From the NCBI GenBank assembly GCA_016432525.1, contig CP066693.1:614175-678174 (forward strand): 64,000 nt of DNA, in the 5' to 3' direction. Within the stretch, counting starts at the first letter, position 1; each line of letters starts with the position of its first letter. A program made the position numbers and the translations under genes. Shown in pieces: positions 26,997 to 45,475 of the stretch. The DNA is from Candidatus Woesebacteria bacterium (GTDB lineage: Bacteria > Patescibacteriota > Microgenomatia > UBA8517). Under the pieces are notes generated by a model, which searched no databases, was not told the DNA's origin, and saw only the letters and a program-made list of their open reading frames with translations.

Positions 26997-28066
26997 TGAT
27001 TAATTTAAATTTAAGTGAAGAAATAGAAACCGCCGACAAAGGCAAAATTCTTGAGTCAATAAGATCTCTTGATGGACAAATTTCCCAAGTTTTAGAAGAA
27101 ACCAAAGCTTTTTACCTTCCAGACAGTTACAAAGATATCTTAAATGTCGTAGTTTGCGGAATGGGTGGATCAGCTCTAGGTGGACGCATAGTTAAAGCTC
27201 TGACAACTCCCGCTTCTCGAATTCCTATAGAAATAATAACTGACTACACTCTACCATATTACGTTGGAGAAAAAACTTTAGTAATTCTCTCTTCGTATTC
27301 AGGAAATACTGAAGAAACAATATCAACTCTTTCAAATGCACAAAATAAAGGTGCAAAAATTTTTGGAGTCACAACAGGAGGAAAACTCAAAGATTTGTTA
27401 ATCGAAGCAAAACTTCCAGCATATTTATTTAACCCAAAAAATAATCCTTCAGGCCAGCCCAGAATGGCGCTTGGTTATTCAATTGCCATAAATCTAGTAG
27501 TCTTGGCTAAGTTGGGAGCATTTAATGTCTCAGAAAATGATCTTAAAAAAGCAGTTAAAACTTCGTCGAAATTTATTAAATTATTTGACTCCACAGTTAC
27601 TGAAAACGAAAATATAGCCAAAAAGCTTGCTCAAAAACTATATTTAAAAGCTCCAATTTTGTTTGCAAGCGGCCATCTTCTCGGAATTGCTCATGCTTTC
27701 AAAAACCAAGTTAACGAAAATTCAAAAACTTTTAGTACTCTTTTTGATTTGCCAGAAGCAAACCATCATCTTTTAGAAGGTTTTGGTTTCCCCAAATCTT
27801 CAAAACATGTGTTTCACTTTTTATTTTTTGAATCTAAAAACTACACTCTAAACGCTCAAAAAAGATATCCCATTACAGAAGATGTTGTAAAAAAAGAAGG
27901 CTACGAGTTTAGTGTTTATAAAACTCTCTCGAAAGAAAAACTTGAAGAAATATTTGAAATTCTTGTTCTAGGATCCTATTTAAGTTTTTATTTAGCTCTA
28001 TTAAATGAAATAGATCCCTCACAAATCCCTTGGGTAGATTATTTCAAAAAAGAACTAGCAAAATAA
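26996..28066 (+). CDS. Bifunctional phosphoglucose/phosphomannose isomerase (SIS domain)
   Basis: Two SIS motifs are present: VVCGMGGSALGGRIV and VILSSYSGNTEET. Confidence 0.7.
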   Translation: MINLNLSEEIETADKGKILESIRSLDGQISQVLEETKAFYLPDSYKDILNVVVCGMGGSALGGRIVKALTTPASRIPIEIITDYTLPYYVGEKTLVILSSYSGNTEETISTLSNAQNKGAKIFGVTTGGKLKDLLIEAKLPAYLFNPKNNPSGQPRMALGYSIAINLVVLAKLGAFNVSENDLKKAVKTSSKFIKLFDSTVTENENIAKKLAQKLYLKAPILFASGHLLGIAHAFKNQVNENSKTFSTLFDLPEANHHLLEGFGFPKSSKHVFHFLFFESKNYTLNAQKRYPITEDVVKKEGYEFSVYKTLSKEKLEEIFEILVLGSYLSFYLALLNEIDPSQIPWVDYFKKELAK

Positions 28067-28091
28067 ATTCTTATTCTGTATAGTATTTATA

Positions 28092-30380: not shown

Positions 30381-30385
30381 ATAAA

Positions 30386-31666
30386 ATGGCAAAAATTCAA
30401 AAGGTTTGGGCAGTTGAAATATTAGACTCAAGAGCAAACCCCACTGTTGAGTGTGCAATACAGCTCGATTCAGGAGCAGTAGCTGTTGCTTCAGTTCCAT
30501 CAGGAGCTTCGACAGGTACTCACGAAGCATTGGAGTTAAGAGATAATGACCCTGAACGTTTCAAAGGTAAAGGTGTGGTTAAAGCCGTGACTAACGTAAA
30601 TCAAGTTTTAGGCCCAGCCATTGTTGGGATGGATCCAACAGACCAAGATGGAGTTGATAATCGATTAAAAGGTTTAGATTCAACACCAAATAAATCAAAG
30701 CTTGGAGCAAATGCAATTCTTTCTGTTTCCTTAGCAAATGCAAAAGCAGCTAGTATAGCCAATAATTTTGCGCCTTATAAATGGGTTAACCAGCTTGCGC
30801 AAAGAAAAGGAATAGTAGTTCAAACCTTAAAAGTTCCAACACCAGTTTTTAATATGATTAACGGAGGTCTTCATGGAGCAGGAAACCTTGATTTCCAAGA
30901 ATTTTTTGTGATTCCGGCTTCCTCTAAAAAATTCTCAGATGGACTTCGTGAAGGCGCAGAAATTTATTTAAGTATCGGTGAAAATCTAAAACGTCGTGGA
31001 GCTATCCACTCAGTCGGCGATGAAGGAGGTTACGCTCCTAATCTTTTTACAAATGCAGATGCATTAGAAATCCTTGTCGAAACAATCAAACAAACTCCTT
31101 ATGCTATCGGTCGTGATGTATTTTTAGGTCTTGATGTCGCAGCTTCTCATTTCTTTAACGGCAACGCTTACTCAATAAGAGACAAATCAGCTCCAGTAGA
31201 AGAAAATGGAATGCTTGATTACTACAGAGAACTTAATGGGACCTATCACCTAGCAATTCTTGAAGATCCTTTAAACGAAGATTCCTGGAGTGGATGGAAA
31301 AATATAACTCAAACATTGGGTGCGGAAGTCTTAATAGTAGGTGATGATCTTTTGGCAACTAACCCTCAAAGAGTCCAAAAGGCAACTGCAGAGCACGCAT
31401 GTAATGCAATTTTGGTTAAACCTAACCAAATAGGAACAGTCACAGAAACCTTAGAAGTTATTAAAATGGCAAGAGATGCCAATTGGAAAATTATTATTTC
31501 TCATAGATCAGGTGAAACAAATGATTGGTTTATAGCAGATTTTGGAGTTGGAGTAGGAGCTGACTATGCAAAATTTGGAGCCCCCGCAAGAGGCGAACGT
31601 GTAGCCAAATACAATAGACTAAGCTCAATTGAAGTAGAGTTGTCCCTCGCAAATCAAAATGCCTGA
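30386..31666 (+). CDS. eno: Enolase
   Basis: N-terminus reads AVEILDSRANPTVE, and the signature LVKPNQIGTVTE / SHRSGETND is present. Confidence 0.9.
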   Translation: MAKIQKVWAVEILDSRANPTVECAIQLDSGAVAVASVPSGASTGTHEALELRDNDPERFKGKGVVKAVTNVNQVLGPAIVGMDPTDQDGVDNRLKGLDSTPNKSKLGANAILSVSLANAKAASIANNFAPYKWVNQLAQRKGIVVQTLKVPTPVFNMINGGLHGAGNLDFQEFFVIPASSKKFSDGLREGAEIYLSIGENLKRRGAIHSVGDEGGYAPNLFTNADALEILVETIKQTPYAIGRDVFLGLDVAASHFFNGNAYSIRDKSAPVEENGMLDYYRELNGTYHLAILEDPLNEDSWSGWKNITQTLGAEVLIVGDDLLATNPQRVQKATAEHACNAILVKPNQIGTVTETLEVIKMARDANWKIIISHRSGETNDWFIADFGVGVGADYAKFGAPARGERVAKYNRLSSIEVELSLANQNA

Positions 31667-33206
31667 AACTAAATTCGCCCTCCTCGTCATTCTCGATGGA
31701 TTTGGAATAGCACCTGCATCAGTTGGTAACGCCATAACTTCAGCTAACTTAATTAATATTACAAGAGTGACTGCATCTTACCCACACACCCAACTAAGAG
31801 CATCTGGAAAAGCAGTTGGTTTACCAGAAGGTGAGCCAGGTAACACTGAAACAGGCCATTTAAATTTAGGCGCGGGAAGAATTGTTTATCAGGACTTAGA
31901 GCGAATTAATATGTCTATTGCAGACGGCTCTTTTTTTGAAAATAAGACCTTAATTCAAGCAATCAATCACTGCAAAGAAAAAAATTCCAATCTACATGTA
32001 ATGGGGCTTATTGGAGGCGGAGGTGTTCATTCTAATAAAAATCATCTTTTCGCACTTATTCACTTAGCAAGGCTTCAAAATTTTAATCGACTTTTTATTC
32101 ACCTCTTCACGGATGGTCGCGACTCAAATCCCACTTCTTCCAAAATTTATATAAAAGAAGTAGAAGATGTAACAAAAAAAGAACAAACAGGGAAAATAGC
32201 TTCAATAATGGGGCGTTATTGGGCAATGGATAGAGATAATCGCTGGGAAAGAACATCTAAAGCCTACAATGCTTTAACAAAAGGGGAAGGAAATAAAGCC
32301 AAAACACCTTTTGAAATTATAGATAATTCTTATAGTCTTAAAAAAACAGATGAGTTCATTGAGCCAGCTCTTATTGTAGATAATCAAAATAATCCTATCG
32401 GTTTAATTAAAGATAATGATTCAGTTATATTTTTTAACTTTAGAATTGATAGACCAAGGCAACTAACTAGAAATTTTGTACAAAAAGAGCCTCTAAAAAA
32501 TTTATGTTTCGTAACCATGACAGAATATGACAAAGAATTTGAATCCTACGCTGTAAAAGTTGCTTATCCTCGTGAGCTTGTGAACATGCCACTTTCAAGA
32601 GTTATTTCTGAAGCAGGACTAAAACAACTTCGTGTTGCCGAATCAGAAAAAGAACGTTTTGTCACTTTTTTCTTTAATGGACAAAGGGAATTTGCATTCA
32701 CAGGAGAAAAAAGAATAATTGTTCCTTCACCTAATGTAGTAACTTACGATTTAAAACCAGAAATGTCAGCATATGAAACTACCGACAAACTTCTAAAAGA
32801 GCTTAGAAACGCTGAAATTCCTTACTCCTTTGCGTTAATAAATTACGCAAATCCCGATATGGTAGGTCACACAGGGGATCTGAATGCCGCTATAAAGGCA
32901 GTTAAGATAGTAGATGAATGCTTGGGTCGACTTATTAGTTTCATAATAGCCTATGGTGGAGTCCTGTTAGTTACAGCAGATCACGGAAACTGCGAGGAAA
33001 TGATCGATTTAAAAACAGGAGAAATTAACACCGAACACACGTCAAATCCAGTACCATTTATAGCTGTTTCAAAAGATTTTGCAGGAACACAAGTTAACAT
33101 TCAAAGTGGAATTCTTGCTGATATTGCCCCAACTATTCTCAAGATTCTAGAACTTAATCAGCCCACAGAAATGACTGGCCGCAATTTATTAGAAGGATTA
33201 CTTTAA
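31659..33206 (+). CDS. gpmI: 2,3-bisphosphoglycerate-independent phosphoglycerate mutase
   Basis: N-terminus reads LVILDGFG. Alkaline-phosphatase-superfamily motifs are present, including the catalytic Ser region and ADHGNCE. Confidence 0.9.
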   Translation: MPETKFALLVILDGFGIAPASVGNAITSANLINITRVTASYPHTQLRASGKAVGLPEGEPGNTETGHLNLGAGRIVYQDLERINMSIADGSFFENKTLIQAINHCKEKNSNLHVMGLIGGGGVHSNKNHLFALIHLARLQNFNRLFIHLFTDGRDSNPTSSKIYIKEVEDVTKKEQTGKIASIMGRYWAMDRDNRWERTSKAYNALTKGEGNKAKTPFEIIDNSYSLKKTDEFIEPALIVDNQNNPIGLIKDNDSVIFFNFRIDRPRQLTRNFVQKEPLKNLCFVTMTEYDKEFESYAVKVAYPRELVNMPLSRVISEAGLKQLRVAESEKERFVTFFFNGQREFAFTGEKRIIVPSPNVVTYDLKPEMSAYETTDKLLKELRNAEIPYSFALINYANPDMVGHTGDLNAAIKAVKIVDECLGRLISFIIAYGGVLLVTADHGNCEEMIDLKTGEINTEHTSNPVPFIAVSKDFAGTQVNIQSGILADIAPTILKILELNQPTEMTGRNLLEGLL

Positions 33207-33826
33207 TTCAAATATTTACGTATAAGCCCAACCATTTTCCCTTGTATTCGGACATTCTTTACAAATATCGGGCTCATTGCTGAATTTGCTGGTTCAAGTC
33301 TGATTCTTGTTGCTTCTTTATAAAACCTTTTCAAGGTTGCCATTCCATTATCCAAAAGTGCTACAACAATATCCCCATTTCTTGCAATTTCAGTTTCCTC
33401 AACAATCACAAAATCACCATCTCTTATTTGCTCTTCTATCATTGACTCTCCTCGAACTTGAAGTACATAAACTCTTTTTGATCCATTCACAAAAGCAGGT
33501 GGAATATCCATAGAAGCATTAGGGTCCTGCATTGGCTCAATTGGAGCACCGGCTGCAATAAACCCAAGTATTGGGACATTGACTACCCTCTCCCCTGATT
33601 CAGCAACAATATCGTTTGTTAAAGTGATCCCTCGATTCTTCCCATGCCTTCTTTTAATTACTCCTTTTGCCTCCAAAGATTCCAAATGTTCATGAACAGT
33701 TGCAAGAGAAGAAACACCAATGCATTCAGCTATCTGTTTTAAGGTTGGAGCATATCCAAAAGCCTGAATATGTTGGTATATAAAATCAACTATCTGTTTT
33801 TGTCTTTTGTAAATTACAGGGGCCAT
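33203..33826 (-). CDS. lexA: LexA repressor
   Basis: A winged-helix N-terminus is followed by the cleavage site at ...AAGAP..., the S24 peptidase Ser (GESM) and Lys (ATLKRF). The track start at 33925 lies upstream of the promoter; the ATG at 33826 gives a 207-aa protein. Its stop overlaps the gpmI stop (shared TTAA). Confidence 0.85.
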   Translation of the reverse strand: MAPVIYKRQKQIVDFIYQHIQAFGYAPTLKQIAECIGVSSLATVHEHLESLEAKGVIKRRHGKNRGITLTNDIVAESGERVVNVPILGFIAAGAPIEPMQDPNASMDIPPAFVNGSKRVYVLQVRGESMIEEQIRDGDFVIVEETEIARNGDIVVALLDNGMATLKRFYKEATRIRLEPANSAMSPIFVKNVRIQGKMVGLIRKYLN

Positions 33827-33839
33827 AACTTTCACTAAC

Positions 33840-33868
33840 AATTTACAAACTTTACCCGAACTTGTCAA
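33840..33868 (-). promoter_or_regulatory. lexA promoter: TTGACA, 17-nt spacer, TAAATT
   Basis: On the minus strand the -35 TTGACA (33863-33868) and the -10 TAAATT (33840-33845) sit about 14 nt upstream of the lexA ATG. Confidence 0.5.
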
Positions 33869-33893
33869 GGGGATATAATATATATAACGCACA

Positions 33894-33913
33894 TTGTGAG
33901 ATTTCTTTTCCAA
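33894..33913 (+). promoter_or_regulatory. Candidate operator motif TTGTGAGATTTCTTTTCCAA. It is shared with the polX upstream region and lies just downstream of a divergent gGATATAAT -10 (33871-33879).
   Basis: The 8-mers TTGTGAGA and TTTTCCAA occur at nearly the same spacing here and at 11273-11291. Confidence 0.3.
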
Positions 33914-34008
33914 TGGGAGATTCAATACCTACAACATATAGAATCGACGTTTCCAACGACCTAGATAAAGCAATGGTTACGGTCAAAAGAGAATTCGCAA
34001 AAGCATAG
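33913..34008 (+). other. Candidate small ORF (31 codons, MGDSIPTTYRIDVSNDLDKAMVTVKREFAKA) or small RNA, transcribed divergently from lexA
   Basis: A + strand -10 TATAAT at 33874-33879 is followed by the operator-like motif and then the ATG at 33913. No Shine-Dalgarno is present, and the ORF ends at a TAG at 34006-34008. Confidence 0.2.
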
Positions 34009-34051
34009 AAAACAAAAAAAGCCTGTTATGACTTATCATCACAACAGGCTT
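34008..34051 (-). terminator. Rho-independent terminator for the 34074-35189 gene
   Basis: The stem aagcctgtt...aacaggctt is followed on the minus strand by TTTTTTTGTTTT. Confidence 0.6.
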
Positions 34052-34073
34052 ACTATTAACAATCAAATTGGGT

Positions 34074-35189
34074 TTACCAAGCTACAAGTAACCTTGAATA
34101 CCAAGCCTGGGCAATCGAATGCAACTTCCAAAAACTAAATCCATCAGACATGGTTATACACAAAGTATACATATCCAAACCTCCAGACTGATAATTTTCT
34201 GGGCATTCGTAAACTATCATCAAATCGTCAGGTGACCAAGAAAGAGGAACACGGGTACTTTCTGTGTGTATCTTCATAACATATGTGCCATCTAGGCTCG
34301 AAACCAACAAAACCCGACCAGCACTATTATTACTAGCCCAACATGCAATTCTCTTTGAGGTATGAGCAAGTATTACATCACCACCCGAACAAGAGTAACC
34401 TTGAATATTAGAGGTTTCTAGTTCTGTCTTTGTTTTTCGACTCACCGAAAAAAGATAGTTAGATGAGCTACTGACTAAAAGCGTATCTGAATCAGACAGC
34501 CATCGTAAATCAGGATTTAAGTCTGGCCCATCCAAAACAACATAGTCCTTTGGAACATGTTCATTGTGAAAATCCAGGTAATCATATGGATATTTACTTG
34601 AATCAAGTTTTACAACAACAACCCAATTGTTAGACCCAAATTCTTGATGTACAAAGGCTAAAAATCTCCCATCTGGTGATACCACTGGAGAAATATTCCA
34701 TGTATCAAAATGCGAGCCACTAACAACCTTATACTCTGAATCTTTAGTTAAATCCTGAACAAAAAGACCAACTCCATCTCCCCTGATCACATCCATCTTG
34801 GAAGTAAGAACCTCATTATTATTTCCAAACCATGTAAAGCCAAGGAAATAATAAACCGGTTTGTAAGTCTTGATCAGGATTCCTTTTTCATCATAAAAAT
34901 CAACGAAGCTGTATTCGCAACATGCAGGAATTACCGCAAGCTTCGTATGGTCAGGTGACCACAAAAGTCGCTCGACATCATGATTTAGAGGTATTCTTAC
35001 TTTGTTTTGTCCACCAGGATCAACGATTTCCAAATAATAGGAATATTTGTTTGAAACAGAATCTTGTAAAACTATCACATATGCAATCCTGTACACTTTT
35101 TCTTGTGCCCAAACTTTGTTAGTTGGTACTTCCACCAAACTTCCCCATACCGTCAGAACCAAGATCAATAGAATAGTTAACCTTTTCAT
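34074..35189 (-). CDS. Secreted PD40/TolB-like beta-propeller repeat protein
   Basis: Signal peptide reads MKRLTILLILVLTVWGSLVEV. Repeated WSPD and SPDGRFLAFV motifs are present. The ATG at 35189 carries a perfect GGAGG Shine-Dalgarno at 5 nt; the track start at 35201 is a TTG. Confidence 0.6.
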   Translation of the reverse strand: MKRLTILLILVLTVWGSLVEVPTNKVWAQEKVYRIAYVIVLQDSVSNKYSYYLEIVDPGGQNKVRIPLNHDVERLLWSPDHTKLAVIPACCEYSFVDFYDEKGILIKTYKPVYYFLGFTWFGNNNEVLTSKMDVIRGDGVGLFVQDLTKDSEYKVVSGSHFDTWNISPVVSPDGRFLAFVHQEFGSNNWVVVVKLDSSKYPYDYLDFHNEHVPKDYVVLDGPDLNPDLRWLSDSDTLLVSSSSNYLFSVSRKTKTELETSNIQGYSCSGGDVILAHTSKRIACWASNNSAGRVLLVSSLDGTYVMKIHTESTRVPLSWSPDDLMIVYECPENYQSGGLDMYTLCITMSDGFSFWKLHSIAQAWYSRLLVAW

Positions 35190-35217
35190 CTCTTCCTCCA
35201 ATTTGATTTGTTAAAGA

Positions 35218-35237
35218 ACTGTGGCTATATTATATCA
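35218..35237 (-). promoter_or_regulatory. Second copy of the 20-bp element ACTGTGGCTATATTATATCA. On the minus strand it reads TGATATAATATAGCCACAGT and provides an extended -10 for the 34074-35189 gene. It lies in the divergent region shared with uvrB.
   Basis: A 20/20 identity with 9508-9527. The -10 TATAAT occupies 35229-35234 on the minus strand. Confidence 0.5.
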
Positions 35238-35282
35238 CTTCTGTCTATTCACTTTCGCTTAAATTTCGGATATTATCAAAGT

Positions 35283-37292
35283 ATGGATCTAAAACTTGTC
35301 ACTAACTACAAATTAACAGGGGACCAGCCCCAGGCTGTCGAAAAACTCGTATCTAATTTAAAGAAAAACCAAAGATATCAAACTCTTTTGGGAGTTACTG
35401 GTTCCGGTAAAACTTTTTCAGTGGCCAATGTAATTGAAAAAACTCAAAAGCCAACCTTAGTTATTTCTCACAATAAAACTCTGGCAGCTCAGCTTTATCA
35501 GGAATTCCGCGACTTTTTCCCACAAAACGCAGTTTCTTACTTTGTTTCTTACTATGATTATTACCAACCTGAAGCATATATTCCTTCAACTGACACCTAT
35601 ATTGAAAAAGATTCAGATGTAAATGAACTCATCGACAAACTTCGCCTTGCTGCAACTACAAATATTCTGACGCGCAAAGATGTCATCGTGGTGGCCTCAG
35701 TTTCTTGTATTTACAATTTAGGCTCTCCCAAGGAATATGGCAATTTTGTGCTTGAATTAACTCCGGGAATGAAAATTCAAAGAGTTCAAATTCTTGACCG
35801 TCTTGCCTCTCTTCAATATGAACGCTCAGATTTTGGTTTCCATAGAGGTACTTTTAGGGTCAGGGGAGATATCATAGATGTTTATCCAGCCTATGATGAT
35901 GTTGGTGTAAAAATCCAACTCTCCGGGGATTACCTCGCTCGTATCGACAAATTCGATCCAGTTTCAGGGCAAACCTTGGAAGAAAATTTAAATTTCTTTA
36001 TTCTTTATCCTTCAAAACACTATGTTACTGATCCAAACAAAAACAAATCTGTGTTTAAACAAATTCAAGATGATTTAAAATTTCAAGTTGAAAAATTTAA
36101 AGACGAAGGAAAGCTTCTTGAGGCAAATAGAATCTCACAAAAGGTAACTTACGATCTTGAGATGATTCAAGAGTTGGGTTACACCAAAGGAATTGAAAAT
36201 TATTCTCGTTATTTTGACGGGAGAGCAGAAGGGGAGCCTCCTTTTACTCTTGTAGATTATTTTAATGAAGCTTATGGCAAAGATTGGCTTTTGGTAGTTG
36301 ATGAAAGCCATATCACTTTTCCACAGGTTAGGGGAATGTACGCAGGCGATAGAAGTAGAAAAGAAACTCTAATTAATTATGGCTTTCGCCTTCCTTCAGC
36401 ACTCGACAATCGTCCCCTTAAGTTTGAAGAATTTATGAGATTGGTTCCAAATTTTGTCGCGGTTTCAGCTACTCCCAGTGAATGGGAAATTTCTATGTCC
36501 GAAGGAAATATTGTAGAGCAACTTGTTCGTCCCACAGGCATTGTAGATCCGCTAGTGGATATTCGTCCGACCCAGACTCAGGTTAAAGATGTAATTGAAG
36601 AAGTAAAACTTCGTGCTAATAAAAAAGAAAGAGTTTTGATAACTACCCTAACCAAAAAAACAGCTGAAGATGTAAGTAACTTTCTCGCAGAGCAAGGCTT
36701 AAACGTTCAATATCTCCACTCAGATGTTAAAACATTAGAACGCACTGATATTTTAGATAAACTTCGTCTTGGTAAATATGATTGTCTGGTTGGAGTAAAT
36801 TTATTGCGTGAAGGTTTGGATCTTCCAGAAGTCTCACTAGTTGCAATCCTAGATGCAGATAAGGAAGGTTTTTTAAGATCTGATGTTTCTTTAATTCAAA
36901 CAATGGGCCGCGCGGCTCGCCACATAGAAGGAAAGGTTATTTTATATGCAGACCAAGTTACAGGATCAATGGATAGGGCATTAAAAGAAGTTAAAAGAAG
37001 ACGTGAATATCAAGTTAGTTGGAATAAAAAGTACAGAATTACTCCCAAAAGTATTCAAAAACCAGTTCGCCAAAAACTTATTGATTTTGAGGCAATTTAT
37101 GAAGAAAAAGCCAAATCCAAATCACGAGTTACATTTTCATCGCTTAATGATATCGATATAGATTCGTTTACTCCAATGCAAAAGAAAAAGCTTGTTATAA
37201 ATCTAAAACGCGAAATGCGCCTTGCAGCAAACGATCTTGATTTTGAGCTAGCAGCAGGAATTAGAGACAAAATCAGAGAAATAGAAATTTAG
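35283..37292 (+). CDS. uvrB: Excinuclease ABC subunit B
   Basis: Helicase motif I reads GVTGSGKT. The beta-hairpin, helicase C domain and C-terminal UvrB/UvrC interaction domain are present. The track start at 35208 is an upstream TTG. Confidence 0.9.
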   Translation: MDLKLVTNYKLTGDQPQAVEKLVSNLKKNQRYQTLLGVTGSGKTFSVANVIEKTQKPTLVISHNKTLAAQLYQEFRDFFPQNAVSYFVSYYDYYQPEAYIPSTDTYIEKDSDVNELIDKLRLAATTNILTRKDVIVVASVSCIYNLGSPKEYGNFVLELTPGMKIQRVQILDRLASLQYERSDFGFHRGTFRVRGDIIDVYPAYDDVGVKIQLSGDYLARIDKFDPVSGQTLEENLNFFILYPSKHYVTDPNKNKSVFKQIQDDLKFQVEKFKDEGKLLEANRISQKVTYDLEMIQELGYTKGIENYSRYFDGRAEGEPPFTLVDYFNEAYGKDWLLVVDESHITFPQVRGMYAGDRSRKETLINYGFRLPSALDNRPLKFEEFMRLVPNFVAVSATPSEWEISMSEGNIVEQLVRPTGIVDPLVDIRPTQTQVKDVIEEVKLRANKKERVLITTLTKKTAEDVSNFLAEQGLNVQYLHSDVKTLERTDILDKLRLGKYDCLVGVNLLREGLDLPEVSLVAILDADKEGFLRSDVSLIQTMGRAARHIEGKVILYADQVTGSMDRALKEVKRRREYQVSWNKKYRITPKSIQKPVRQKLIDFEAIYEEKAKSKSRVTFSSLNDIDIDSFTPMQKKKLVINLKREMRLAANDLDFELAAGIRDKIREIEI

Positions 37293-37334
37293 TGTTATAA
37301 TTGACAACCACTGGTAATCCAGCGGAAATTTTAT

Positions 37335-40238
37335 ATGGAAAACTACATTAAAGTTAGAGGAGCCAGAGAACACAACCTCAAAAATATAGATCTTGATATT
37401 CCCAAAAATAAACTTGTGGTATTTACAGGAGTATCAGGTTCAGGCAAAAGCTCTCTTGCATTTGACACGATTTACGCAGAGGGCCAAAGGCGTTATGTCG
37501 AAAGTTTAAGCTCCTATGCTCGTCAATTTTTGGGAGTAATGCAAAAGCCAGACGTTGACTCAATCGAAGGTCTTTCTCCTGCAATTTCAATTGACCAAAA
37601 AACAACTTCCAAAAACCCTAGATCAACAGTCGGAACTGTCACAGAAATCTATGATTATTTGCGTCTTTTATTTGCCCGTGTAGGCCACCCTCATTGTCCT
37701 GTTTGTGGCAGGGAAATCTCAAATCAATCAGTTGAACAAATAGTTGAAAAAGTTACCGAAATCCTAAAAGGTAGATTTATGATCCTCTCTCCTATTGTTA
37801 AAGATAGAAAAGGTGAGTTTAGTGCTCTTTTTGAAAACATCAAGGCCCAAGGTTTCAAAAAGGTAAGAGTTGATGGGCAAGTTAAAGATTTAGATGAAGA
37901 TTTTGTTTTAATCAAAACAAATAAACACAATGTTGATGTCGTAATAGATAGGATTGTAGTTACTCCAAAAGATCTAAAAAATAAAATTTTCAAAGATAAT
38001 CTAAAAACCAGGCTTACTGATTCAATTGAACAATCCCTTAAACTCTCAGATGGTCTTGTTGTTGTCTCCCAAGTTTTGGATAAATCCTATGATTTTCCCG
38101 AGTTTCCTAAAACTTTTAATGATCATTTATTCTCTGAAAAGTTTGCTTGTCCAGTTGATAACATAGAGCTCCCTGAAATCGAGCCACGCCTTTTTTCTTT
38201 TAATACTCCACATGGAGCATGTCCTAGATGCACAGGAATTGGAAAGGTTATGGAGGTCAATCCAAAAGCTGTTTTTTCAGACGAAATTTCTATTCTAGAA
38301 GGTGGGATTTTACCCTTCTCAACCATCTTTGAACACGACACATGGTATGCAAAATTAATTAAAACAGTTTGTAGTGAAAATGGGATAGATTCCAAAAAAC
38401 CTCTAGGGCAAATTGACGAAAGCAAAAAAAACCTTCTTATTAATGGAACTGGTGATCGCATCTATCAGGTTTACGGTGAAAATAGGCATGGAAGATTAAC
38501 TTCCATTAATGAAAAATTTGATGGAATCAAGAAAAATTTAGAAAAAAGATATCACGAAACTGATTCTGACTACACAAAAATGGCCATTGAAAGATATATG
38601 TATCAAGCTGTTTGTCCAGCCTGTCTTGGAGCCCGTCTCAAAAAAGAAAGTCTAGGTATAACAATTGATTCAAAATCCATAAGTGATGTTACAAGTCTTA
38701 CAATTGACGAGTCAGCAAACTGGATTAAAAAAATCAAAAACACTTTATCAGAAAAAGAAAAAAATATTGGGGATTTAATTTTGAAAGAAATCGAATCTCG
38801 TCTTAATTTCCTTAAGGATGTAGGCCTTGAGTATTTAACTCTGGGAAGAGAAGCAGCATCTCTAGCTGGAGGCGAAGCCCAAAGAATTCGTCTTGCATCT
38901 CAAATCGGATCAGGTTTGACAGGAGTTTTGTATGTTTTAGACGAGCCAACAATTGGTCTTCATCCAAGGGATAATGGTAGGCTAATTAAAACTCTCAAAA
39001 AATTAAGAGATTTAGGAAACACTGTTTTGGTTGTAGAACACGACAAAGAAATGATGGAAGTTTGCGATTATCTTGTTGATTTTGGACCTGGGGCTGGCAA
39101 GTGGGGAGGAGTAGTTGTTAGTCAAGGAACTATTGAAAAAGTAAAAAAAGACAAAAACTCCCAAACTGGAAAATTTTTGTCAGGCAAAAAAGATATAAAT
39201 ATTCCAAATCCTCCTTCCGAATTTTTTAAAGAAGGTCAATTTTTGCATTTAATAGGTGCTTCTCAGTTTAATCTTAAAAATATAACTGTTGATTTCCCTC
39301 TCGGAAAATTAATTGCAATAACAGGAGTTTCAGGCTCAGGTAAATCAACTTTAATAGTCGATACTCTTTATCATGCTGTTGCCCAAAAGATAAACCGCGA
39401 ACACAAAGAAATTTCAGGTGCTTTTCAAAGAGTTGAGGGAATTGAAAATCTCAACAAAGTTATTTTGATGGATCAATCTCCAATTGGGAGAACTCCACGA
39501 AGTAATCCAGCAACCTATACCAAAATTTTTGATCTTATTAGAAAAATTTATGAAGGAACAAAAGAAAGTAGAATGCGTGGTTATAATGTTGGAAGATTTA
39601 GTTTTAATGTTAAAGGCGGCCGCTGTGAAGCTTGTGAAGGTCAAGGTCAAATCAAAATTGAGATGCAATTCATGCCGGATATTTGGGTAACTTGCGATGT
39701 TTGTCATGGAGCCCGCTATAATTCTCAAACTCTTGATATCGTCTACAAAGGCAAAAATATTTCTGAGGTACTCTCCTTTACAGTCTCAGAAGCAAAAGAA
39801 TTCTTCCATGCCCATATCCCAATTGTAACAAAGCTTGAAACTCTGGAAGAGGTAGGCCTTAATTACATGGAATTAGGACAGAGTGCTACCACACTTTCAG
39901 GTGGAGAGGCACAAAGAGTAAAGTTGGCATCAGAACTTGGTAAGCGCTCAACTGGTCGCACATTGTATATTCTTGATGAACCAACAACTGGTCTTCATTT
40001 TCTAGATCTAGAAAAGCTTCTTAAGATTTTAAAACTTTTAGTCTCCAAAGGCAATACTGTTATTGTAATCGAACATAATCTTGATATTGTCAAAAATGCT
40101 GATTGGGTAATAGATTTAGGGCCTGAAGGAGGAAACAAAGGCGGAGAAATAATTGCAGAAGGTTCACCAAGAGAACTTGCCAAAGTAAGCAATTCCTTTA
40201 CTGGTAAATACTTAAAGCAATATATTAAACTTCATTAA
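37335..40238 (+). CDS. uvrA: Excinuclease ABC subunit A
   Basis: Two ABC ATPase modules carry Walker A motifs GVSGSGKSSL and GVSGSGKSTL. Zinc-finger cysteines CPVCGRE and CPRCTG are present. Confidence 0.9.
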   Translation: MENYIKVRGAREHNLKNIDLDIPKNKLVVFTGVSGSGKSSLAFDTIYAEGQRRYVESLSSYARQFLGVMQKPDVDSIEGLSPAISIDQKTTSKNPRSTVGTVTEIYDYLRLLFARVGHPHCPVCGREISNQSVEQIVEKVTEILKGRFMILSPIVKDRKGEFSALFENIKAQGFKKVRVDGQVKDLDEDFVLIKTNKHNVDVVIDRIVVTPKDLKNKIFKDNLKTRLTDSIEQSLKLSDGLVVVSQVLDKSYDFPEFPKTFNDHLFSEKFACPVDNIELPEIEPRLFSFNTPHGACPRCTGIGKVMEVNPKAVFSDEISILEGGILPFSTIFEHDTWYAKLIKTVCSENGIDSKKPLGQIDESKKNLLINGTGDRIYQVYGENRHGRLTSINEKFDGIKKNLEKRYHETDSDYTKMAIERYMYQAVCPACLGARLKKESLGITIDSKSISDVTSLTIDESANWIKKIKNTLSEKEKNIGDLILKEIESRLNFLKDVGLEYLTLGREAASLAGGEAQRIRLASQIGSGLTGVLYVLDEPTIGLHPRDNGRLIKTLKKLRDLGNTVLVVEHDKEMMEVCDYLVDFGPGAGKWGGVVVSQGTIEKVKKDKNSQTGKFLSGKKDINIPNPPSEFFKEGQFLHLIGASQFNLKNITVDFPLGKLIAITGVSGSGKSTLIVDTLYHAVAQKINREHKEISGAFQRVEGIENLNKVILMDQSPIGRTPRSNPATYTKIFDLIRKIYEGTKESRMRGYNVGRFSFNVKGGRCEACEGQGQIKIEMQFMPDIWVTCDVCHGARYNSQTLDIVYKGKNISEVLSFTVSEAKEFFHAHIPIVTKLETLEEVGLNYMELGQSATTLSGGEAQRVKLASELGKRSTGRTLYILDEPTTGLHFLDLEKLLKILKLLVSKGNTVIVIEHNLDIVKNADWVIDLGPEGGNKGGEIIAEGSPRELAKVSNSFTGKYLKQYIKLH

Positions 40239-40243
40239 AGGTA

Positions 40244-42052
40244 ATGAAAAAAATTATTGTATTATTTTTGCTGACTCTTTTTTTTATTTTTCCCAAAAAA
40301 GCATTTGCTGACGAAAACTTCTTGTCTACAATCGACAGTACTTACCAAGTGGATGTGACAGGAGCAACTCGTGTTTCAAATACAATTTATCTTGAAAACA
40401 AAAAAACCAACATTTATGCCGTAAGCTACAGTCTAATTCTTACAGGTATAAAACCCGAGGATGTAACAGCAACTCAAGACAATGGCTCAAAACTTGATTT
40501 AACTACTCAAGAAAACAATGGATCTATAAAAGTAAATGTTAAGTTTCCTGATGCTATTGTTGGAATAGGTAACAAAAGAACATTTACATTAAACTATGTC
40601 AACAAAAACTTAGCAGTCAAAACAGGGGAAATCTGGGAAATTTCGATTCCGCGTCTTGAGTCACAAAATTCATTTGAATCATTTATTGTTCGCTTAAAAA
40701 TTCCCAAATCTTTAGGTAATCTTGCTTATATTTCTCCAAATGAAGATGAAGTTATAAATTCTCAAGATAGTACCAGCTACATTTTTAAAAACAATTCAAA
40801 TTCTCAAAATGGGATATCCGCAGCTTTTGGTAATTTTCAGGTTTTCGGTTTCGAACTAACATATCATTTGGAAAATCCAATCCCCATAAGCTCGCAAATA
40901 CAAATAGCTCTTCCTCCAGATACTGCTTACCAAAAAATGTATTATACAGATATTGCTCCAGACCCATCAAATGTCAGCATTGATCAAGACGGTAATTGGC
41001 AAGCACTGTATTACCTTAAGCCTGGAGATAGATTTGACGTAAAGACCAAAGGTTCAGTACAGATTTTCCCAAACCCTAGAAAAAATTATCAATCCCCGAC
41101 AACTGATTTAGGAGAGTATCTAAAACCAACTGAATTTTGGCAAACCCAGGACCCTCAAATTCAAAAGCTATCAAAAACTCTTAAAACTCCAAAGGCTATT
41201 TATGATTATGTAACTCAAAATCTAAAATATGACATTACAAGAGTAAAGCCAAACATTGAAAGGTTTGGAGCAATTAAAGCACTGGAAAATCCCAAAAACG
41301 CTATTTGTATGGAGTACACAGATCTTTTCATAGCTTTAGCCAGAGCTGCAGGGATTCCAGCCCGAGAAATTAACGGCTACGCTTACACCGAAAATCCAGA
41401 CATAGAGCCAATTTCTTTGGTCTCAGATGTTCTACATGCCTGGCCAGAATATTACGACTCAAAACTACAGTCATGGGTACCTGTTGATCCAACTTGGGGA
41501 TCAACATCAGGAATAGATTTTTTCTCAAAACTCGATCTTCGTCACTTTGTATTCGTAGTACACGGGCTTAATCCTAATTTACCTTACCCAGCCGGTTCCT
41601 ATAAATTAGGCACAAATCCCCAAAAAGACGTTTTTGTAAGTTTTGGAAAATTACCAATTTTAAGTAACCAAAATCCAGATCTTTCGATAAGTTTTTCTAA
41701 AGTTACTCTTAAAAATACAACTATAAATGCAATTTACAGTCCCAAAATAAATATTTTCTTTGACCAAAATCTCGCCCTTACCAGAACCATACCAGTTTTG
41801 CCACCTTTTGGATACTCAGAAGTAAATTTTGAAATTCCATCAGGATTTTTAGGGTTTGGTCTTCCTCAAACAGTCGATGCAAGGCTAGGTTCTCTTTCAG
41901 CAGTCTATTCTATCCCCAAAAACTTAGTTATTGTCAAAAATATTTCCTTAATTTTGCTGTGTATTCTTGTTCTAATCTTGGTAATCTTGCGCAAAAAAAT
42001 AGTAAAAATAGTAAAATTGACACATGCAAAAATTACCCAAAGATTTACCTGA
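40244..42052 (+). CDS. Transglutaminase-like (Cys-protease-fold) membrane-anchored exported protein
   Basis: Signal peptide is present. The transglutaminase core Cys context reads AICMEYTDLFIALARAAGIPAREINGYAY, with downstream His/Asp residues (HAWPEYYD...VPVDP). A C-terminal TM anchor is present. Confidence 0.65.
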   Translation: MKKIIVLFLLTLFFIFPKKAFADENFLSTIDSTYQVDVTGATRVSNTIYLENKKTNIYAVSYSLILTGIKPEDVTATQDNGSKLDLTTQENNGSIKVNVKFPDAIVGIGNKRTFTLNYVNKNLAVKTGEIWEISIPRLESQNSFESFIVRLKIPKSLGNLAYISPNEDEVINSQDSTSYIFKNNSNSQNGISAAFGNFQVFGFELTYHLENPIPISSQIQIALPPDTAYQKMYYTDIAPDPSNVSIDQDGNWQALYYLKPGDRFDVKTKGSVQIFPNPRKNYQSPTTDLGEYLKPTEFWQTQDPQIQKLSKTLKTPKAIYDYVTQNLKYDITRVKPNIERFGAIKALENPKNAICMEYTDLFIALARAAGIPAREINGYAYTENPDIEPISLVSDVLHAWPEYYDSKLQSWVPVDPTWGSTSGIDFFSKLDLRHFVFVVHGLNPNLPYPAGSYKLGTNPQKDVFVSFGKLPILSNQNPDLSISFSKVTLKNTTINAIYSPKINIFFDQNLALTRTIPVLPPFGYSEVNFEIPSGFLGFGLPQTVDARLGSLSAVYSIPKNLVIVKNISLILLCILVLILVILRKKIVKIVKLTHAKITQRFT

Positions 42053-43304
42053 AACTCCGGGAGTTTATATTTTCAAAAATTCAGATAATGTTCCTACATA
42101 TATTGGCAAAGCCAAAAATTTAAAAAGGAGAGTTTCTTCATATTTCAAAAGCAATCTTATAGGAAAAACAAAATTAATGGTAACCGAATCTGAAACTCTG
42201 TCCTACATCAAAGTAGATTCAGAATTTGAAAGCCTTCTTTTAGAAGCCAGACTGGTAAGGAAGTATATGCCTAAATACAATATCGAGTTAAAAGACGATA
42301 AATCTCCACTATATATTGCAATCACTAAGGACAATTATCCAATTATCAAAACTTTCAGAAGAACTGATTTTGGAAAAATTAAAACAAAGGCTTATTTTGG
42401 CCCATTTCCTCAAAGTTCTATCCCTAAAAAGGTCTTAAGAAACTTAAGATCAATTTTTCCTTATAGCGAACATTTACCCTCAAAAAGAGTTTGTATTTAC
42501 CGTGAACTCGGTTTATGTAACCCTTGCCCTTCAGAAATAGAATTAGAGACCAACCTCAAAACAAAAGAAATTTTAAGAAAAAAATATTTAAAAAACGTGA
42601 ATCAAATCAAAAAAATTTTAGACGGAAGGCTTACTCAGGTTAAAAAATTTCTAATTAAGCAAATGCAAGAGCTTTCAAATCAAGAAATGTTTGAACAAGC
42701 CCAAGAAGCCAAACAAAAACTCCAAGGTATAGAATATCTCCAAACTCGTGCCTCTCCCGAGGAATACCTTAAAAATCCCAATTTTTTGGTAGACATTAGA
42801 AATAGCGAATTAGAAAATCTGAAAAACATAATTTCAGGATACAAAAACATTAAGAAACTTGAAAGAATTGAGTGTTTTGATGTAGCTCACACTGCAGGAT
42901 CTTTTCCAACAGCTTCTATGGTAACTTTTATCAATGGTGAGCCAGAAAAATCTCTTTATAGACATTTCAGAGTCAAAAAAGGCAAAAAATCAGACGATCT
43001 TTCCCAAATGAGGGGAGTTTTAGAAAGGAGAAAAAAGCAGTTTAAAAACTGGAGCTATCCTGATTTAATTATAATTGATGGAGGAAAAACTCAGCTAAAA
43101 ACAGCAGAGGAAGTGATAACCGAAGTTCCAGTTGTGTCACTGGCTAAACGCTTTGAAACTATAATTGTAAAGGTGGATAATAAATATATAGAAAAAAGAT
43201 TGCCAATAGGGCCTGCCAAAAATCTGGTTCAGAGAATACGAAATGAAGCACATCGCTTTGCGCGAAGATATCACCACTATCTCATAAATAAAAATCTAAC
43301 ATGA
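42024..43304 (+). CDS. uvrC: Excinuclease ABC subunit C, short form (GIY-YIG plus RNase-H-like endonuclease domains)
   Basis: The GIY-YIG N-terminus reads GVYIFKNSDNVPTYIGKAKNLKRRVSSY. The C-terminal endonuclease region reads IECFDVAHTAGS. At 426 aa it lacks the canonical UvrBC-interaction and HhH regions. Confidence 0.7.
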   Translation: MQKLPKDLPETPGVYIFKNSDNVPTYIGKAKNLKRRVSSYFKSNLIGKTKLMVTESETLSYIKVDSEFESLLLEARLVRKYMPKYNIELKDDKSPLYIAITKDNYPIIKTFRRTDFGKIKTKAYFGPFPQSSIPKKVLRNLRSIFPYSEHLPSKRVCIYRELGLCNPCPSEIELETNLKTKEILRKKYLKNVNQIKKILDGRLTQVKKFLIKQMQELSNQEMFEQAQEAKQKLQGIEYLQTRASPEEYLKNPNFLVDIRNSELENLKNIISGYKNIKKLERIECFDVAHTAGSFPTASMVTFINGEPEKSLYRHFRVKKGKKSDDLSQMRGVLERRKKQFKNWSYPDLIIIDGGKTQLKTAEEVITEVPVVSLAKRFETIIVKVDNKYIEKRLPIGPAKNLVQRIRNEAHRFARRYHHYLINKNLT

Positions 43305-43702
43305 AAAGAGTATTGAGAACATTTATAATCCAAAGCATCTCTTTGTATATTGTTTCTCAAATTGCCCAGGGAATGGAATTTGAAAAAGGATTTCAAAGTT
43401 TGGTTTTTACAGGCCTTGCCCTGACAGTAGCATCATTTTTAGTTAAACCAATAGTCAATCTTCTTCTGATTCCAATTAACTTATTAACTTTTAATCTCTT
43501 CAGATTCGTAGGTAATGCAATTACTCTTTATCTAGTAGATCTTATTCTGCCTGAATTTAGAATAACTGTGTTTCATTTCACAGGCCTAAATTCAAGTCTT
43601 ATTTTTCTTCCAGAAATAGTTATAATCTTTCCCATTAGCTATCTAGCTTTCTCACTTCTAATTTCTATTATAAGTGGGGTGCTTCATTGGCTTGTGCGCT
43701 AA
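43301..43702 (+). CDS. Phage-holin-family-4 / YvlD-like (DUF360) small membrane protein
   Basis: Four TM helices with an LIPINLLTFNLFRFVGNAITLYLVD pattern. Confidence 0.45.
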   Translation: MKRVLRTFIIQSISLYIVSQIAQGMEFEKGFQSLVFTGLALTVASFLVKPIVNLLLIPINLLTFNLFRFVGNAITLYLVDLILPEFRITVFHFTGLNSSLIFLPEIVIIFPISYLAFSLLISIISGVLHWLVR

Positions 43703-43722
43703 GATAGAGTATAATTGATCTC

Positions 43723-43935
43723 ATGCAAAGCACACTTACTATCGCACAAATCATAGTTTCAGCCCTTCTTCTGGGAACTATTATTGTTCAGGTCAAAGGA
43801 ACAGGTTTTGGCCGTGTCTGGGGAAGCATCAACGCATCAACCACCCGCCGTGGTTTAGAAAGGCTAATTTTCCGCTCAACATTTGTCCTTGCTTTTGCTT
43901 TTATTCTCATATCAGTCCTTTCGCTTATAATCTAA
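43723..43935 (+). CDS. secG: Preprotein translocase subunit SecG
   Basis: A 70-aa protein with two TM helices and a central ...QVKGTGFG...RRGLERL... loop. Confidence 0.55.
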   Translation: MQSTLTIAQIIVSALLLGTIIVQVKGTGFGRVWGSINASTTRRGLERLIFRSTFVLAFAFILISVLSLII

Positions 43936-45252
43936 ATGCTACGAAACTTACGCTATCTGTTGCGTCTGACAAAGGCATTCATTTCGAAATTCAAAATAAT
44001 AATTCTCTTAAGTGTTATTTTTGGTTTTCTTTTCTTCCTGGCTATTTTCTTTGTTATACCTAGATTTTTTAATAAAACAAACGAAAGAATCGGCATAACC
44101 GGACGTTTCACAACTAACGATATTCCACAATCTATCCTTCTAAATATTAGCTCAGGCCTAACTTCTATAAACGATTCAGGTAAACCTATTGGAGCTCTAG
44201 CCAAAAGCTTTGAAACAACCGATAACGGTAAAACTTGGGTTTTCGAGCTTAAAGATAATATTTACTGGCAAGATGGAGAAAAAATTACTAGTAAAAGTAT
44301 TGATTATAATTTTGAAGATTTAACTCTAGACAATTCAGACCCCAAAAAGATAATTTTTAAACTCAAATCTCCTTTTTCACCTTTTCCAGTAATTGTATCT
44401 AAACCAATCTTCAAAAAAGGTCTTTTGGGCAATGGTCTTTGGCAAGTATCAAATATTTCTCTATCTTCAAATTATGTTGAAAGTCTTCTTTTGAAAGATA
44501 AAAAAGGTAATACCAAAACATTCAAATTTTATCCAAGCGAAGATAGTACTAAAACTGCTTTTAAGTTGGGCCAAATTGATAAAATTAGTGACTTAATTGA
44601 CCCTTCACCGTTTACAAATTGGAAAACAGCCAAGTTTCAAAAAAATATAGACGAGCATCAAGTAGTTGCAGTTTTTTTTAACACAAAAGAAGGAGGTCCA
44701 TTGTCAGATAAAAATATTCGCCAAGGCCTTTATTATGCAATAGACAAATCAAGTCTAGGAGAAAGAGCAGTAAGCTCAATTGCTCCAACTTCATGGGCTT
44801 ATAATTCTCAAACTAAGCCTTATGATTACGATCCTAAAAAAGCTAAAGATTTACTATCAGATTTTGTAAAAAAAACAGCCCCAATTACTCTTCTAACAAC
44901 TCCAAGTTTATTAGATAATGCTCAAAAAATCGTAAATGATTGGCAAAAAATAGGAGTAAAAGCCCAAGTTCAAGTTACCCTTACAATTCCAACTGATTAC
45001 CAAGCTCTTTTAGCAATCTATGATATTCCACAAGATCCCGATCAATACACAACTTGGCATTCTACTCAAATAGAAACCAACATAACTCGCTATTCAAACC
45101 CTAGAATTGACAAGCTCTTAGAAGACGGAAGAACTGAAGTTGATCAAGAAAAAAGAAAGAAAATTTATCTTGATTTTCAAAGATTCCTCTCTGAAGATGC
45201 ACCAGCAGCCTTTCTTTATCACCCCGCTTATTACACTGTTACCAAAAAATAA
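43936..45252 (+). CDS. Membrane-anchored solute-binding protein, family 5 (peptide/nickel-binding-like)
   Basis: An N-terminal TM helix is followed by the SBP_bac_5-like segments ...NIRQGLYYAIDK... and ...FLYHPAYYTVTKK. Confidence 0.5.
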   Translation: MLRNLRYLLRLTKAFISKFKIIILLSVIFGFLFFLAIFFVIPRFFNKTNERIGITGRFTTNDIPQSILLNISSGLTSINDSGKPIGALAKSFETTDNGKTWVFELKDNIYWQDGEKITSKSIDYNFEDLTLDNSDPKKIIFKLKSPFSPFPVIVSKPIFKKGLLGNGLWQVSNISLSSNYVESLLLKDKKGNTKTFKFYPSEDSTKTAFKLGQIDKISDLIDPSPFTNWKTAKFQKNIDEHQVVAVFFNTKEGGPLSDKNIRQGLYYAIDKSSLGERAVSSIAPTSWAYNSQTKPYDYDPKKAKDLLSDFVKKTAPITLLTTPSLLDNAQKIVNDWQKIGVKAQVQVTLTIPTDYQALLAIYDIPQDPDQYTTWHSTQIETNITRYSNPRIDKLLEDGRTEVDQEKRKKIYLDFQRFLSEDAPAAFLYHPAYYTVTKK

Positions 45253-45253
45253 A

Positions 45254-45475
45254 TCACTTCTTAACTTCAATTATTCCACTTACCTCAGCGTTTTTATTTT
45301 GAAGATCGGCTAAAGGTCTGGTAGTTGGTGCTGTAGAATGTGTAGCTCTCTCAACTCTTTGTTTTCTTGCCAATCTTTCCTCTTGAGCTCTATATGGATC
45401 ATATTTAAGTTTAATATCATCTGGAACAAGTTTAAAACCTATTCTAGGTTCTGGTTTTGTCGTCTCTTCTGCCAT
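45254..45475 (-). CDS. Hypothetical small protein (73 aa)
   Basis: A -10 TAAAAT lies 6 nt from the ATG, suggesting a leaderless transcript. No family was recognised. Confidence 0.3.
   Translation of the reverse strand: MAEETTKPEPRIGFKLVPDDIKLKYDPYRAQEERLARKQRVERATHSTAPTTRPLADLQNKNAEVSGIIEVKK

Follow-up and report, generated by a model that had tools for sequence, protein, structure and literature searches.

In a Candidatus Woesebacteria genome, the three genes of nucleotide excision repair (NER) lie in one tightly packed run together with two genes for membrane proteins. We read this run, with a probability of ca. 0.7, as the Microgenomates form of a LexA-controlled excision-repair operon, composed of a divergent lexA followed by uvrB, uvrA, a transglutaminase-like gene (TG below), uvrC and a gene of the PF04020 family, in which TG would be an ancient passenger that shares the expression of the repair genes and exerts its function in the cell envelope. 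The most notable element is its uvrC, which codes for a minimal protein found across the clade. The stretch analyzed, referred to here as the window, comprises 64,000 nucleotides of contig CP066693.1 (positions 614,175 to 678,174) with a G+C content of 34%, and its host belongs to the Woesebacteria, in the Microgenomates within the Patescibacteria/Candidate Phyla Radiation (CPR), with a tiny genome. Judged from the comparisons with related genomes, both oddities of the locus, the surface-protein gene in a repair operon and the short UvrC, are old features of the whole clade and not errors.

The five genes are found on the same strand, and the listing of open reading frames (ORFs) gives spacings of 42, 5, −29 and −4 nt between them (Table 1). 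A contiguous uvrB-uvrA-TG-uvrC cluster had been proposed in the initial annotation of the window, and the ORFs are indeed located where it had placed them, with UvrB and UvrA scoring far above the NCBIfam equivalog cut-offs. The overlap of 29 nt that had been described between the TG stop and the uvrC start can be read directly in the sequence, the two genes being in different frames. Both the cluster itself and the overlap are real. Such an overlap implies that TG and uvrC are co-transcribed and makes translational coupling probable. The packed unit has a fifth and last member outside the cluster originally delimited, the PF04020 gene, which shares its first 4 nt with the end of uvrC.

Over its whole length, the UvrC of the window scores 308.9 bits, above the TIGR00194 cut-off (285.45), and falls under all the cut-offs of the NF0112xx/NF001824 models. 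Two nuclease domains were recognized, a GIY-YIG domain at aa 13 to 86 (Pfam E value of 1e-10; PDB 1yd6, 2e-20) and a catalytic RNase H endonuclease domain at aa 278 to 413 (PF08459, 3e-38; PDB 2nrr/2nrt, 5e-19) with its site at D286, D325, D352 and H410. In the alignment with the full-length E. coli protein, residues 12 to 254 of the latter correspond to 6 to 258 of the window UvrC and residues 389 to 545 to 276 to 417, all in a single reading frame, and the absent parts are E. coli 255 to 388 and 546 to 610. The former corresponds to the inactive RNase H-like domain at the center of the protein (PF22920), in place of which ca. 17 residues stand in frame (junction at aa 259 to 275); Pfam gave no match to PF22920 in the window UvrC even at E ≤ 10. 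The latter is the tandem helix-hairpin-helix domain, (HhH)2, which has no counterpart: searches of all frames and of the adjacent DNA with Pfam and tblastn gave no HhH match, and the protein ends 9 residues past the RNase H domain. The idea of a split gene, in which another frame or neighboring DNA would encode the HhH or the central domain, was rejected, since tblastn of the two missing E. coli pieces against the window and 80 related loci returned nothing under an E value of 0.49. (These loci are the best 80 of 214 confirmed in a scan with a TG profile of one genome per GTDB species, and the counts given below refer to the informative loci among them.)

The description of this UvrC as a shortened protein of 426 aa with both nuclease domains and no HhH is correct, but its account of the missing parts is half wrong: the internal piece that is absent is the central domain, and the supposed absence of a UvrB-binding region has to be withdrawn, a UVR motif being located at aa 206 to 238, in a stretch that aligns to E. 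coli UvrC 205 to 239. Its score in the window protein, 15.3 bits, is under the cut-off of 21.5, and the same position reaches 28.7 to 31.3 bits in orthologues. By alignment and by the orthologue scores, the UvrB-binding UVR motif is kept in the short UvrC, and UvrB retains the partner of this motif, a C-terminal UVR domain. The two active sites are intact. Among 320 short UvrCs, Y15, Y26, R36, E74, N86, D286, D325, D352 and H410 are invariant or >98% conserved, with values of 100% for D286, D325 and D352, 99% for H410 and ≥98% for the GIY-YIG residues.

A search over 1.84 billion cluster representatives (50%-identity clusters), of which the best 150 were inspected, indicated how widespread this architecture is. 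Nearly all of these representatives, down to 34% identity, are of the short type and match in one stretch, the full-length ones measuring ca. 400 to 475 aa. The 120 best homologues listed are mostly 416 to 451 aa long, with three of 467 to 498 aa, and the family amounts to at least 130 clusters at 50% identity. Its named carriers include Woesebacteria, Gottesmanbacteria and one metagenome-assembled genome (MAG) labelled “Azambacteria”, the contig of which (L085) has the short UvrC and no TG. PF22920 was found in the long relatives P0357 (588 aa, full length, also with HHH_5) and P0383 (an intermediate of 542 aa without HhH), and neither PF22920 nor HHH_5 was detected in the short forms. One short UvrC (P0282) carries an RNHCP domain fused at its C terminus. 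Because the same short architecture is found clade-wide, a frameshift or a pseudogene can be excluded, and on this comparative evidence the short UvrC is the normal form of the clade. No description of it was found in the literature searched, and databases annotate it automatically as UvrC or GIY-YIG nuclease.

In comparison with canonical UvrC (E. coli, T. maritima, D. radiodurans; TIGR00194), the window protein has the same GIY-YIG 3′ nuclease, most of the Cys-rich motif, the helical UVR motif and the RNase H-like 5′ nuclease with Asp/Asp/(Asp)/His, and is equally encoded with uvrA and uvrB. It differs by the absence of PF22920 and (HhH)2, by being ca. 130 to 185 residues shorter and by its Cys motif, in which three of the four Cys (C157, C165 and C168) are conserved, at 94 to 99% in the 320 short UvrCs. 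In this region (uvrC aa 148 to 168, positions 42465 to 42527), the alignment has a gap of 5 residues at the first E. coli Cys, for which H150 (64%), C150 (10%) or C148 (25%) nearby may substitute, and the ligation of the iron-sulfur cluster may be altered. Cho of E. coli is another shortened UvrC relative without (HhH)2, and its model gives a weak match to aa 6 to 141 of the window UvrC; however, Cho consists of the GIY-YIG half only and makes the 3′ cut only, whereas the window UvrC keeps the UVR motif and a complete catalytic RNase H domain. The best functional analogue is the engineered UvrC-Δ(HhH)2 of D. radiodurans, which retains the binding of UvrB and DNA and performs the two incisions, the 5′ one more weakly (PMC10085695). 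Yet that engineered protein keeps the central platform domain, which is absent from the natural short form too. In the presumed mechanism of the short UvrC, UvrA2B would load UvrB at the lesion, UvrC would be recruited through a UVR-UVR contact with the UvrB C terminus, the GIY-YIG domain would make the 3′-side cut and the RNase H domain would make the 5′-side cut without the help of (HhH)2, possibly with less efficiency.

Two other explanations of the short uvrC were weighed. It could be an artefact, owing to a wrong assembly or to a gene that is decaying, truncated or frameshifted, as one might suspect from its NCBI name, which is merely “GIY-YIG nuclease family protein”. However, the two halves are in one frame without a stop (the initial annotation had left open a continuation in another frame), hundreds of assemblies made independently, with identities as low as 34%, have a UvrC of this architecture and length, its active sites do not vary, and the next gene abuts the uvrC stop codon. 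Frame continuity, the hundreds of similar homologues and the invariant active sites refute the artefact, for which we see practically no chance. It is also conceivable, and in our opinion quite unlikely, that the short UvrC is not self-sufficient, so that a separate protein would supply the DNA-binding and platform functions in trans, or that it makes one cut only and another nuclease the second. The E. coli protein speaks for such a dependence, as Moolenaar et al. reportedly found in 1998 that deletion of (HhH)2 abolishes its 5′ incision, and so does the extra domain fused to P0282. In D. radiodurans, the 5′ cut weakened by the loss of (HhH)2 is restored by the C-terminal half of UvrC in trans, and the central domain, named “RNase H1” by Seck et al. 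(2023), is described as a platform that holds the other domains (PMC10085695). But no coding sequence similar to (HhH)2 or to the central domain was found in the window or in the 80 related loci, and the operon, membrane proteins aside, has no conserved candidate for a partner. The invariance of the catalytic RNase H residues over 320 sequences also speaks for a site that is in use.

The product of TG, described initially as a transglutaminase-like protein of 602 aa with a signal peptide and a transmembrane (TM) anchor, has a Transglut_core domain at aa 305 to 416 (Pfam E value of 2e-19, above the gathering score) and two hydrophobic segments only, a signal-like one at the N terminus, ending AFA|DE, and a TM segment at the C terminus, so that this description holds. 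The layout comprises the signal peptide (aa 1 to 22), two beta-sandwich domains (26 to 275), the core (ca. 300 to 470), an Ig-like domain (479 to 556), the TM segment (ca. 560 to 592) and a basic tail. Two terminal hydrophobic segments plus a basic tail place the bulk of the protein outside the cell. The triad C355/H398/D415 is invariant in 105 homologues. An AlphaFold model built from 20 sequences had a predicted local distance difference test (pLDDT) score of 70 in the catalytic core; with 105 sequences the values were 85.8 for pLDDT and 0.76 for the predicted TM-score (pTM), and the model consists of the signal peptide, the two beta-sandwich domains, the catalytic core, the Ig-like domain and one long C-terminal helix. 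In NCBIfam there was only a sub-threshold match, to a model of mycoplasma TGase-related lipoproteins. The sequence and the model together point to a surface-tethered enzyme of the Cys-His-Asp transglutaminase/papain fold, predicted to act as a protease/isopeptidase or as a cross-linker on envelope or extracellular proteins, with its beta-sandwich domains, of the peptide-handling type, presumably facing outward.

The Transglut_core fold, the Cys-His-Asp triad and the extracytoplasmic location are shared with PDB 3isr and 3kd4 and with the periplasmic domain of P. aeruginosa TgpA (6g49), and an accessory beta-sandwich domain is also found in 3kd4. The TG product differs from these proteins in its order of signal peptide, two beta-sandwiches similar to those of Ost1 and M1 aminopeptidase N, core, Ig-like domain and single C-terminal anchor. 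The N-terminal multi-pass membrane domain of TgpA is absent from it, which leaves it outside the TgpA family. Eukaryotic NER has an inactive transglutaminase-fold domain in Rad4/XPC. That analogy was rejected for TG, the product of which is exported and membrane anchored and has an intact triad.

The position of TG within the operon is conserved in most of the Microgenomates loci compared. The order uvrB-uvrA-TG-uvrC-PF04020 is kept in ca. 70 of the 80 species-level genomes, although the relatives are only 42 to 50% identical. Taken by gene, and on the TG strand, 68/74 loci have uvrA upstream of TG, 71/77 have uvrC immediately after it and 57/63 have uvrB, while the PF04020 and SBP_bac_5 genes follow in almost all, with PF04020 coming after TG where uvrC has been lost. 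Even the overlap of the TG stop with the uvrC start recurs in 67/72 loci (with starts estimated from alignments). The same gene order was found in L082 (labelled Gottesmanbacteria) and in L087, the UvrCs of which are 36 to 37% identical to that of the window. The initial annotation had considered TG a possible operon hitch-hiker, which is close to what the evidence indicates, save that the gene, found in this slot also in Gottesmanbacteria-type loci, is not a recent or lineage-specific arrival.

The locus is not free of variation. In L086 (6249 to 6998), the slot between uvrA and uvrC is occupied by a 249-aa exported, membrane-anchored protein homologous solely to the first beta-sandwich domain of TG (hhalign 99%, E value of 7e-18), with no catalytic core. 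Insertions of 0.6 to 2.9 kb are present between uvrA and TG in L005, L007, L009, L013, L015, L019, L024, L030, L031, L035, L036, L044 and L046, and of 1.9 to 6.2 kb between uvrC and PF04020 in L009, L012, L046, L066 and L069. A CofD gene (PF01933) is located between the PF04020 and SBP_bac_5 genes in the more distant relatives L082, L086 and L087, joined by SecG in L082 and L086; the window has neither at that place. It should be noted that many MAGs with the Woesebacteria-type locus (L001, L004 to L006, L012, L013, L024 and others) are titled “uncultured Gammaproteobacteria” or “Alphaproteobacteria”, which are probably placeholder or wrong labels.

Six loci are informative in another way (L001, L008, L020, L038, L050 and L080), as in them TG is followed by the PF04020 and SBP_bac_5 genes with no uvrC between. 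Upstream sequence is available for five, in which the glycolysis genes and lexA are found in order, with neither uvrB nor uvrA. The six occupy at least four separate positions in a neighbor-joining tree of TG, which suggests that uvrB, uvrA and uvrC were lost from the locus, and TG kept, at least four times independently. Since TG was kept where the locus lost uvrB, uvrA and uvrC, and its product is extracytoplasmic, a link to NER is not supported and the function of TG would be independent. TG appears to be an ancient resident of the operon with an envelope function of its own, probably co-induced with the repair genes and functionally independent of them.

The expression of the unit is where LexA comes in. 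A divergent lexA and LexA-box-like repeats, which the initial account of the cluster did not include, were found upstream of uvrB. Homologues align from residue ca. 33 of the lexA ORF, so that M34 (33826) is its likely start. In 56/63 loci lexA is opposite to uvrB, usually ca. 80 to 120 nt apart, and in the spacers a half-site (G/T)TTCG(G) is directly repeated at a distance of 11 nt, in many loci 20 to 50 nt upstream of uvrB; an equivalent repeat is found at the lexA position in most related loci. We built a position-specific scoring matrix (PSSM) from 19 sites in related loci, with the window excluded. Its hits amounted to 3.0 hits/kb in lexA-proximal intergenic DNA and 0.079/kb elsewhere (38-fold), and 65 of the 90 hits of ≥13 bits are located at the 5′ ends of lexA or uvrB, with none near TG, uvrC or PF04020. 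The two best matches in the window fall precisely at the lexA and uvrB promoters, and they serve as an independent check because the window was not used for the matrix. Over the whole window, a simple dyad, TTCG-N5-8-TTCG, was found 5 times where 5.3 were expected and is not enriched by itself; what carries the signal is the position of the sites and their conservation across species. A generic promoter/terminator scan of positions 33800 to 45400 was not above shuffles either (39 against 35.8 and 11 against 7.5, respectively), and the promoter scan, whose sites as a class do not exceed shuffles, was used only to place the -10 and -35 around the repeat. In L019 and L046, a long palindrome of GTTCGG-like units, GGTTCGGAACCCGTAA(C/G)TT(A)CGGGTTCCGAACC, is found ca. 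60 to 30 nt upstream of uvrB instead of the usual direct repeat.

Repeats of the GTTC-N7-GTTC pattern form one of the known classes of LexA boxes (PMC8565304). As in the LexA-regulated uvr genes of Alphaproteobacteria with direct-repeat boxes of this kind, an autoregulated lexA would stand beside the uvr operon, with promoter spacers that carry half-sites at an 11-nt distance; the difference is that here all three uvr genes and two membrane-protein genes are in one unit, and that the LexA site is a predicted one. LexA would bind the GTTC-N7-GTTC-like repeats within the promoter spacers of lexA and uvrB, and DNA damage would de-repress a single uvrB-uvrA-TG-uvrC-PF04020 transcript. The whole operon is thus predicted to be SOS controlled, co-transcribed and damage inducible. 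The early suggestion that TG is a damage-responsive factor finds one unexpected support, the divergent lexA and the uvrB-promoter repeats predicting SOS control of TG as well.

How far the presence of TG in the operon reflects its function can be argued in more than one way. TG and the PF04020 holin-like protein might be real effectors of the damage response, kept in the operon because SOS induction remodels or permeabilizes the envelope, which we think unlikely. In its favor, the unit has one evident promoter only, and this contains the LexA-box-like repeat, the 5-nt gap between uvrA and TG and the overlap between TG and uvrC are tight, the overlap is maintained across the loci, TG and PF04020 remain directly beside lexA and its box where the uvr genes were lost, and one lineage keeps in the slot a truncated version that is still exported. 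On the other hand, the uvr-less loci have no second box beside TG, no transglutaminase-like envelope protein with a role in the damage response was found in the literature searched, and the conserved synteny extends to the glycolysis genes upstream and to SBP_bac_5 downstream. As the conserved stretch includes these unrelated genes, conservation of position alone says little about function. Small-genome bacteria often pack unrelated genes together. At the other extreme, TG could be a recent lineage-specific insertion without any history in the operon, for which nothing speaks beyond its unrelated predicted function. Its presence at the same position in 68 to 71 of 74 to 77 loci, and in distant relatives, refutes this, and hardly any likelihood is left to it.

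Some points weigh against our own interpretation of TG as an ancient passenger of a LexA-controlled operon with a working minimal UvrC. The neighbor-joining tree from which the independent losses of the uvr genes were counted is rough, and these losses are seen at the locus only. The enrichment of the PSSM hits is partly circular, as the seed sites came from regions of that class, and 18 of 58 loci have no match at the chosen threshold. Co-transcription and control by LexA are predictions from spacing and motif conservation only. By analogy with the need for (HhH)2 in E. coli, dual incision by the short UvrC would not be guaranteed.

The surroundings of the operon complete the picture. Directly upstream of lexA there is a glycolysis/gluconeogenesis run (26996 to 33206; PGI-like SIS protein, pyruvate phosphate dikinase-type enzyme, enolase and iPGM), the synteny of which is kept in related loci. 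Between lexA and uvrB, the window has a gene for an exported PD40/beta-propeller-like protein, beside which there is a strong terminator-like hairpin (34051 to 34019); it is missing from the lexA-uvrB spacers of most relatives, which measure only ca. 100 nt, and seems to have been inserted in this lineage alone, dividing the region of the two divergent promoters. Downstream, the SBP_bac_5 gene begins 233 nt past PF04020 and is probably a transcription unit of its own. Further on (47194 to 51801), a 1,535-aa protein with several GT2 and GT4 glycosyltransferase domains is followed by a long run of genes on the same strand.

Table 1. Features of the excision-repair locus and its flanks (positions within the window)
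Feature	Position	Strand	Details
lexA (SOS repressor)	33203..33826	-	Pfam LexA_DNA_bind E 1.5e-17, Peptidase_S24 E 8e-31; ORF opens 33925 (TTG)
LexA-box-like direct repeat AAGTTCGGGTAAAGTTTGTAA (GTTC-N7-GTTT)	33843..33863	-	17 nt upstream of likely lexA start; PSSM 15.7 bits, second-best in the 64-kb window
Exported PD40/beta-propeller-like protein gene	34074..35201	-	375 aa; weak PD40 match
Promoter-like site TTCACT-17-TATTAT	35248..35276	+	promoter scan 9/12; repeat ACTTTCGCTTAAATTTCGGAT in spacer
LexA-box-like direct repeat ACTTTCGCTTAAATTTCGGAT (TTTC-N7-TTTC)	35251-35271	+	12 nt before uvrB ATG; PSSM 16.3 bits, best in window
uvrB	35283..37292	+	669 aa; NF003673 975.7 bits vs cut-off 743; Pfam UVR aa 635-668 (C-terminal)
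uvrA	37335..40238	+	967 aa; NF001503 1424 bits vs cut-off 1147
TG, exported C-terminally membrane-anchored transglutaminase/papain-fold protein	40244..42052	+	602 aa; Transglut_core
TG/uvrC overlap	42024..42052	+	29 nt, different frames; TG stop 42052, uvrC ATG 42024
Minimal uvrC	42024..43304	+	426 aa
PF04020 (“holin superfamily IV”-type) multi-pass membrane protein	43301..43702	+	133 aa; Pfam E 7e-16
SBP_bac_5 (peptide-binding family) protein, N-terminally anchored	43936..45252	+	Pfam E 7e-31; TM aa ~11-45

The location of TG inside a repair operon is a curiosity, which would acquire weight only if an SOS-controlled remodeling of the envelope were demonstrated. The most far-reaching version, in which a class-level clade carries out NER with a UvrC devoid of the central platform and of the (HhH)2 clamp, and the same SOS transcript deliberately co-expresses a surface enzyme and a holin-like protein as an envelope response triggered by damage that persists under LexA after the loss of NER, seems to us decidedly improbable. 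The loci that repeatedly lost uvrABC and kept lexA and the envelope genes offer a natural view of reduced genomes in the course of shedding repair pathways. UvrC is the least understood of the NER proteins, and the roles of its platform and (HhH)2 have been probed so far by engineered truncations only. A natural family with both active sites and the UvrB-docking motif, and without platform or (HhH)2, represents a minimal dual-nuclease core that is directly expressible.

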